Below are positions 28,082 through 28,448 of a DNA stretch of 64,000 nt, piece after piece; the stretch's first letter is position 1; the number at the start of each line of letters is the position of its first letter. The DNA is from a virus, in the IMG/VR virus record IMGVR_UViG_3300028073_000008, positions 1 to 64,000 of that record; one strand, given 5' to 3'. The position numbers were made by a program, and so were the translations under genes. A model generated the notes under the pieces. The model was not told the origin of the DNA. It searched no databases and worked only from the letters and a program-made list of their open reading frames with translations.

Positions 28082-28448
28082 CTATTGCTGTATGAAGCGA
28101 TGAAAAAGGTGTTCTGGACGCCGGGGCAGTACCGGCCAGGTCCACCAAAAGCACAGAGGTTAGAGATGATTTTTTTACTTTGGAATTGGTTTGCTTACTC
28201 GAATCAAGATTCGGGTGATCTAAGTAGACACCGTAAACACACTACATTGTATGAAGATCTCTGTATGTGATCTGTGTTTTTGATGGGCCTGAATTAGGTT
28301 CGACAGGGCAATGAGTATCAGAGTGGACAGCAGGGTAGGCGATGACCCTAAATCAAGCAAACAAACTAGACGCAAACGACAACGTTTACGCACTAGCTGC
28401 CTGAACAAGGTAAGCAGGGGCTGGTAAGCCTGGCAACAGAAACTTCCA
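28082..28448 (+). ncRNA. ssrA: Circularly permuted (two-piece) tmRNA; tag (A)ANDNVYALAA
   Basis: Acceptor piece ends GCCGG-GGCAGTA-CCGGC-CAGGTCC-A-CCA (28147); coding piece starts GGGCCTG (28285; G3:U70); tag ORF 28372-28404; AACAGAA 28435-28441; outer ends approximate. Confidence 0.93.
28166..28270 (+). CDS. 34-aa ORF inside the tmRNA intervening segment
   Basis: GAGGT SD 28156-28160; MIFLLWNWFAYSNQDSGDLSRHRKHTTLYEDLCM. Confidence 0.4.
   Translation: MIFLLWNWFAYSNQDSGDLSRHRKHTTLYEDLCM

Follow-up and report, generated by a model that had tools for sequence, protein, structure and literature searches.

A putative small-protein gene inside the excised spacer of a permuted phage tmRNA

Introduction

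Can the spacer that is cut out of a two-piece tmRNA precursor also carry a protein gene? In known permuted tmRNAs, the transcript is cut by tRNA-processing enzymes and the two remaining pieces are joined by base pairing, and the spacer between them is described as discarded RNA. Permuted tmRNAs are known in aquatic T4-like phages such as the Methylophilales phage Melnitz and the pelagimyophages, and Melnitz-like phages also carry a curli module (PMC9004378). The spacer contents mentioned in a tmRNA database paper of 2025 are limited to a gene for tRNA-Ala and one repetitive element (PMC11915505), and our full-text literature searches brought up no protein genes within tmRNA spacers.

The locus described here lies in the first 64 kb (the window) of a 169-kb virus record in IMG/VR with an estimated completeness of 48% (CheckV). 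A sequence-only reading of the window had pointed to a small open reading frame (ORF) that fills the spacer of a tmRNA gene, and had proposed that tmRNA maturation may release a mini-mRNA or that translation of the peptide may regulate processing.

Results

Permuted tmRNA gene

A permuted two-piece tmRNA gene is present at positions 28046–28476 of the window. ARAGORN predicted a permuted tmRNA at 28055–28495 with the tag ANDNVYALAA, and the region gave full-length matches to two Rfam models, tmRNA_permuted (RF04321, 138.7 bits with a cut-off of 47, 28086–28404) and beta_tmRNA (RF01850, 114 bits with a cut-off of 84, 28032–28476). The acceptor 3' strand with its CCA is encoded upstream of the acceptor 5' strand, as is diagnostic of a permuted gene, and the order of acceptor piece, spacer and coding piece is that of the known permuted tmRNAs. 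GGGCCUG pairs with CAGGUCC, the alanine identity pair G3.U70 is present, and the tag frame ends with ALAA. The 3' end of the acceptor piece is ...GGTCCACCA at 28147 and the coding piece opens with GGGCCTG at 28285; in the alignment to the beta_tmRNA model, 123 extra nucleotides are inserted at the spacer. A blastn search of the tmRNA region against GenBank phages gave no match. The features of the locus are as follows.

28046–28075, + strand: sigma-70-like promoter of the tmRNA gene (TTGACA, 18 nt, TACAGT; hexamers matched at 10 of 12 positions, -10 element preceded by TG)
28055–28062: T4-late-like TATAAATA between the -35 and -10 elements of the tmRNA promoter (read from the sequence)
28086–28147, + strand: acceptor piece with the T-arm, the 3' strand of the acceptor stem and the encoded CCA (Rfam alignment; ACCA at 28144–28147)
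28148–28284, + strand: intervening segment (spacer) of 137 nt, absent from the mature tmRNA (sequence and Rfam)
28148–28157, + strand: 5' arm of the closing helix, 10 nt, covering the first two bases of the Shine-Dalgarno sequence (fold and covariation)
28156–28160, + strand: Shine-Dalgarno (SD) sequence GAGGT, 6 nt before the ATG (read from the sequence)
28166–28270, + strand: 34-codon gene of the “YEDLCM” family, stop included (phmmer, tblastn, codon evidence and pN/pS)
28271–28284, + strand: 3' arm of the closing helix (28271–28280) followed by the conserved UGAU (28281–28284) that pairs with ACCA
28285–28476, + strand: coding piece, with G1 at 28285 as the expected RNase P site (ARAGORN and Rfam)
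28372–28404, + strand: tag frame ANDNVYALAA (ARAGORN and Rfam)
28449–28474, + strand: intrinsic terminator, a hairpin with a T run after it (terminator scan)

A single promoter-like site precedes the tmRNA gene, and a single terminator follows it. No second promoter-like site was found before the spacer ORF, which leaves the tmRNA promoter as the sole one. The T4-late-like TATAAATA is also located just upstream of the related tmRNA genes at loci L200, L240, L408 and L494 (as TATAAATAT in L494), which suggests that the tmRNA and the spacer gene of the window may be late-transcribed too.

Closing helix and fold of the spacer

The proposal that the 137-nt spacer is closed by a helix extending the acceptor stem was confirmed: positions 28142–28157 and 28271–28286 are paired at 15 of 16 positions, with one C.A and one G.U. 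The helix is continuous with the acceptor pairs G1-C72 and G2-C71 through the pairing of ACCA with UGAU. In 129 permuted phage tmRNAs, 91% of the cells that match the first 10 spacer positions to their mirror positions are paired, compared with 41–52% in shifted registers, and several pair types occur at most positions, which indicates covariation. The four ACCA/UGAU positions are A-U in 92%, C.A in 121 of 129, C-G in 86% and A-U in 98% of these tmRNAs, so that even the C.A mismatch is conserved. The acceptor stem, the tail and the closing helix of the 129 tmRNAs form a nearly continuous duplex of ~21 bp, which prompts one to ask whether RNase III is involved in the processing.

The window spacer folds into a rod with a minimum free energy of -39.6 kcal/mol (z of about -3). 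The minimum-energy fold pairs the start codon and part of the SD sequence and could hold translation low. We considered whether such strong folding argues against coding and rejected the argument, since folding is no weaker in spacers with an ORF than in those without (mean z of the spacer interiors, -1.46 and -0.39, respectively); the rod of the window therefore does not speak against a coding function.

Open reading frame in the spacer

As the sequence-only reading had described, the loop of the spacer is filled by an SD sequence, the ATG at 28166 and a TGA stop codon, which delimit 34 codons. The stop codon (28268–28270) is directly followed by the 3' arm of the helix. Of 20,000 dinucleotide-shuffled versions of the loop, 4.2% contained an ATG ORF with 34 codons or more and a coverage of 75% or more, and 0.7% did so together with an SD sequence. 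The possibility that the ORF is a frameshifted relative of the spacer peptide of locus L120 was discarded because the other frames hold stop codons and blastp detected no similarity. A homolog search with a 61-residue form of the ORF extended to a TTG codon found only the query itself. DNA patterns (exact and degenerate) designed from the closing helix and the N-terminus of the window retrieved, from viral and metagenome contigs, only ORF-less tmRNAs of the L200 type or chance matches, and the searches at the DNA level thus gave no close relative of the window spacer.

A small-protein family shared by aquatic viruses

A phmmer search against 1.8 billion representative proteins identified homologs of the spacer peptide (P0003–P0006) of 33–37 residues with E values of 1.6e-6 to 4e-4 and the same C-terminus, and one 90%-identity cluster among the matches contains 10 members. 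In a tblastn search against all fetched loci, the peptide matched L240 with an E value of 3e-8. Members of the family have 30–38 residues and end with HRxHTxxYEDLCM directly before the stop codon. The window peptide conforms to this C-terminus with His22, Arg23, His25, Thr26 and Tyr29–Met34, followed by TGA. An SD sequence is present in every family copy examined. All the named copies that were looked up are labelled “hypothetical protein,” and the window peptide gave no match in Pfam (E values up to 0.1), including the 23S rRNA spacer protein family (S23p), or in PHROGs and the ESM Atlas. When the window peptide was compared with GenBank phages by tblastn, only chance matches (E = 7) were obtained, and tblastn of a common marine variant of the family gave no match.

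A degenerate pattern of the C-terminus matched at least 120 viral contigs but only one contig among 185,579 species genomes. This lone cellular match (L532:1987–2028; PBDU01000009.1) is on a 45-kb contig in a metagenome-assembled genome labelled as a Methanobacteriota archaeon, and the contig may be a mis-binned viral one. Single exact variants of the motif are indexed in 85–92 blocks of public assemblies, and the matches there include podophage-like contigs with genes for an SU10-type portal, terminase and lysozyme. These searches indicate that aquatic viral contigs carry the family in abundance and that cellular genomes lack it almost completely.

We aligned 65 sequences of the family (alignment A1); its invariant columns are partly imposed by the search pattern, and the phmmer matches alone are free of that bias. 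The A1 profile scored 64 bits over all 32 positions at a single place in the window record, the spacer. Because the window sequence is the first row of A1, this score mainly demonstrates the absence of a second copy. Conserved residues are encoded by different codons (CGT, AGA and AGG for Arg; CTC, TTG, CTT and CTG for Leu), with third-position variation also at His, Thr, Tyr, Asp and Gly, and the stop codon is TGA or TAA across the family. It is therefore not the nucleotide sequence that is conserved. The check for synonymous-site bias that the earlier reading had suggested agrees with this: pN/pS values between the window and 11 relatives are 0.22–0.72, with synonymous sites near saturation. 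Together with the homologs, this evidence indicates that the spacer ORF is a genuine protein gene under selection, located wholly inside the part that is removed from the mature tmRNA.

AlphaFold with A1 predicted a helix at residues 2–12, with a mean pLDDT of about 80 over residues 1–10; the C-terminal half, which is conserved, had no confidently predicted fold. The N-terminus of the family is thus modelled as a short hydrophobic or amphipathic helix. Small membrane peptides of the type I toxin kind are characterized by a hydrophobic stretch long enough to span a membrane and by an antisense RNA. In the window peptide, the predicted helix covers only ~11 residues and the remainder is polar. 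A single antisense terminator-like site is located at 28391–28370, in the tag region and outside the spacer.

Genomic context of the family and exchange of spacer contents

We classified 125 family loci by their surroundings and checked them with Rfam. In four cases, the window, L240, L408 (=L430) and L494, the gene is inside a tmRNA spacer. In L470 (=L483), L410 and L466, it is 17–26 nt downstream of a permuted tmRNA; the L466 tmRNA (11565–12099, - strand) has a spacer of 260 nt. Other copies are located in spacers of tRNA arrays, between tRNA-Pro and tRNA-Trp in L394 and between tRNA-Trp and tRNA-Ala in L395–L398 and L513, where they begin 17 nt after the CCA and end 5 nt before G1; L412 has a copy just before tRNA-Gln. 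The remaining copies, ~110 of the 125 (~90%), are free-standing, with neither tRNA nor tmRNA nearby. One of these (L391:1501–1602, viewed with the downstream region to about 1804) has its own TTGACA/TATAAT-like promoter and a hairpin, and the gene directly after it shows a weak match to MazE/AbrB-type proteins (PF04014).

L240 is a permuted phage tmRNA (ARAGORN and Rfam) with a 201-nt spacer, in which the helix, an SD sequence, a 32-codon ORF and a stop codon next to the 3' arm are arranged as they are in the window. The ORFs of L240 and the window are 62% identical over the full length. The spacers of L408 and L494 (132 nt) have exactly the layout of the window, with closing helix, SD sequence, ORF and a stop codon abutting the 3' arm. 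Loss of the frame in homologous spacers would have spoken against a gene; in these three loci the frame is kept and length differences are only in-frame.

The mature tmRNAs of L240, L408 and L494 are 60–77% identical to that of the window. The nearest tmRNAs, those of L048, L062 and L123 (78–84%), have a different peptide gene or no ORF in the spacer. L200 retains the closing helix of the window with a compensatory G>T/C>A change and has a 72-nt spacer without an ORF. As closer tmRNAs carry other contents and distant ones carry the same gene, the content of the spacer is exchanged independently of the tmRNA body. This distribution indicates that the spacer in this phage group is an exchangeable slot for small genes.

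Spacers of other permuted phage tmRNAs

Two pattern scans and searches with neighbouring genes yielded 147 unique permuted phage tmRNAs. The first 5'-end pattern required TTCGA, and the GGATCGA subgroup (L200, L240, L408 and L494) was obtained through ARAGORN and tblastn. Among the 82 spacers of 80–300 nt, 38 are filled to 75% or more by an ATG ORF on the sense strand, compared with 1 on the antisense strand and with a mean of 4.6 (maximum of 10) after shuffling. The ORFs belong to about 20 unrelated families, many of which are small hydrophobic peptides, and the frame is kept in diverged members with pN/pS values of 0.07–0.73. In L117:2967–3224 (- strand) and L334:9750–10007 (+ strand), a Cys-rich protein of 86 residues fills a 284-nt spacer. 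This protein belongs to the Pfam family CxxCxxCC (PF03692; 29.4 bits with a cut-off of 23), and pN/pS between the two copies is 0.18; tblastn of the protein gave no match. Very long spacers were also observed, one of 342 nt with a 101-residue ORF (L329:6858–7199) and one of 706 nt (L046).

In most of the spacer ORFs, AAGGA or AGGAG follows straight after ACCA, within the 5' arm of the closing helix. Three forms of stop are found: the UGA of UGAU, a codon immediately before the 3' arm (the form in the window), and a stop inside the mature coding piece, 13–39 nt in (61 nt in one case, L328). The ORFs of L017, L306, L320 and L323 (101-nt spacers) and of L298, L381, L093, L032 and L363 have no stop codon in the spacer and extend 13–39 nt into the coding piece. 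RNase P cleavage at G1 would turn such ORFs into non-stop messages, the natural substrate of tmRNA.

Discussion

Proposed expression and role

We consider it probable that the spacer holds a genuine gene that is transcribed with the tmRNA precursor and has its own SD sequence and ATG for translation, and that its peptide acts in trans. As the gene has no promoter of its own, it would be transcribed within the precursor from the tmRNA promoter. The template of translation would be either the precursor while it is being made or the spacer after its excision. The closing helix would set both processing sites, the one after ACCA and the RNase P site before G1; it would also bracket the cistron exactly and occlude part of the SD sequence, while a terminating ribosome would cover the 3' arm and UGAU. 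With the SD sequence occluded by the helix and the 3' arm covered by the ribosome, the helix probably does not form while the ORF is being translated, and vice versa, so that the two should alternate. As a by-product, translation and processing may interfere with each other, which the arrangement of helix, SD sequence and stop codon makes directly testable. The function of the tmRNA would be unaffected because the spacer is removed. The peptide itself would act on a partner; the predominance of free-standing copies suggests that it works in trans, with the spacer as its expression niche, rather than as a leader.

A broader extension, on which we are doubtful, is that permuted tmRNAs and tRNA arrays of aquatic phages routinely double as messengers. 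The processing of tRNA ends (RNase P at G1 and trimming after CCA) would then free a mini-mRNA of ~130 nt, and the helix that determines the cuts would also clamp the SD sequence of this mini-mRNA. If so, peptide synthesis and tmRNA maturation would be kinetically coupled, and ORFs extending past the RNase P site would become non-stop substrates of their own tmRNA.

Alternative explanations

The gene could have been captured intact into the spacer and lie untranslated there, its SD sequence and start codon buried in the rod and the excised RNA quickly degraded. The strong fold with its paired ATG fits this explanation, and an ORF in a spacer of the Coxiella burnetii 23S rRNA provides a precedent (PMC4990558). 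However, four diverged tmRNA spacers have kept the frame, the SD sequence and every invariant residue while the synonymous sites became saturated, ORF-bearing spacers are generally under purifying selection, and folding does not separate coding from non-coding spacers. A silent passenger is thus unlikely. Even less expected would be an accidental frame in a structured RNA, or a conserved RNA motif mistaken for a gene. The spacer is indeed rod-like and shuffling alone produces a spacer-filling ORF at the rate given above, but the SD requirement lowers this rate to 0.7%, the phmmer homologs are independent of the search pattern, and both the codon usage at conserved residues and the pN/pS values are those of a protein; we regard this explanation as highly improbable.

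Another explanation is that translation serves to control the folding or processing of the tmRNA precursor and that the peptide itself is unimportant. Its appeal is in the position of the stop codon: as it abuts the 3' arm, a terminating ribosome must block the closing helix and the ACCA/UGAU pairing, and the helix is supported across the 129 tmRNAs. A mere act of translation would not account for a conserved amino acid sequence, though, or for the unrelated proteins, including one with a Pfam domain, in other tmRNA spacers. The great majority of family loci have no tRNA or tmRNA nearby, and the earlier idea that translation exists to regulate processing has accordingly lost ground; a purely cis-acting leader seems to us quite improbable. 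A group I intron with a homing endonuclease was also examined and rejected: no Rfam intron family reached its gathering score in the window, 137 nt is too short, and the peptide has no Pfam or PHROG match.

Comparison with known systems

The view that such spacers are discarded RNA is contradicted by the presence of a conserved and selected protein gene with its own SD sequence, and in this the window differs from the known permuted tmRNAs. Group I introns with homing-endonuclease genes occur in the T-loop of tmRNA genes (PMC11915505). There, as in the window, the tmRNA gene encloses a protein gene that is missing from the mature RNA; unlike those cases, the window spacer involves neither an intron nor splicing, and its product is a 34-residue peptide and not a nuclease.

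The Coxiella 23S rRNA intervening sequence contains an S23p ORF that is apparently not translated in vivo and is undergoing reductive evolution, and the excised spacer is rapidly degraded (PMC4990558). It resembles the window in that the ORF occupies a spacer that is closed by a helix and cut out of the precursor of a stable RNA; the ends are not rejoined, and the functional RNA is in fragments. The Coxiella spacer is excised by RNase III, whereas the flanks of the window spacer are tRNA-like, with an encoded CCA and an RNase P site. Unlike the decaying S23p ORF, the family of the window ORF has an SD sequence and is under purifying selection in several phages. That the Coxiella ORF is apparently untranslated and decaying is nevertheless the main reason for caution about the window ORF.

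Messenger RNAs bounded by tRNAs are the basis of the tRNA-punctuation model of mitochondria, and small ORFs are found within the tRNA gene clusters of phages T4 and T5. The window cistron similarly has a tRNA-type 3' end upstream and an RNase P site downstream. It differs in that both tRNA-like ends come from a single permuted molecule, and the cistron is clamped by the acceptor stem and closing helix of that molecule.

A supposedly throw-away spacer thus appears to serve as a messenger RNA as well, and one transcript would give both a stable ribosome-rescue RNA and a protein, although tmRNA spacers are usually treated as waste. In phage genome evolution, the spacer behaves as a slot in which small genes can be swapped. 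Spacer genes will escape annotation pipelines in which tmRNA and tRNA loci are masked. The family itself represents very abundant, virus-restricted mini-proteins that have no Pfam or PHROG model.

Other features of the window and related loci

In-frame TAG codons are absent from the spacer ORF. Elsewhere in the window (22831–22904, + strand), there is a tRNA of the amber suppressor type with the anticodon CUA (tRNA-Pyl(cta) in ARAGORN; 42.7 bits with the Rfam tRNA model). The window tmRNA is located downstream of a gene for a 261-residue protein. By this neighbouring protein, the nearest phages are L120, L122, L123 and L145, in which, unlike in the window, the tmRNA is upstream of the gene. 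Most of the ~160 related loci have no tmRNA nearby. The tmRNA gene itself is therefore mobile or sporadic in this phage group.
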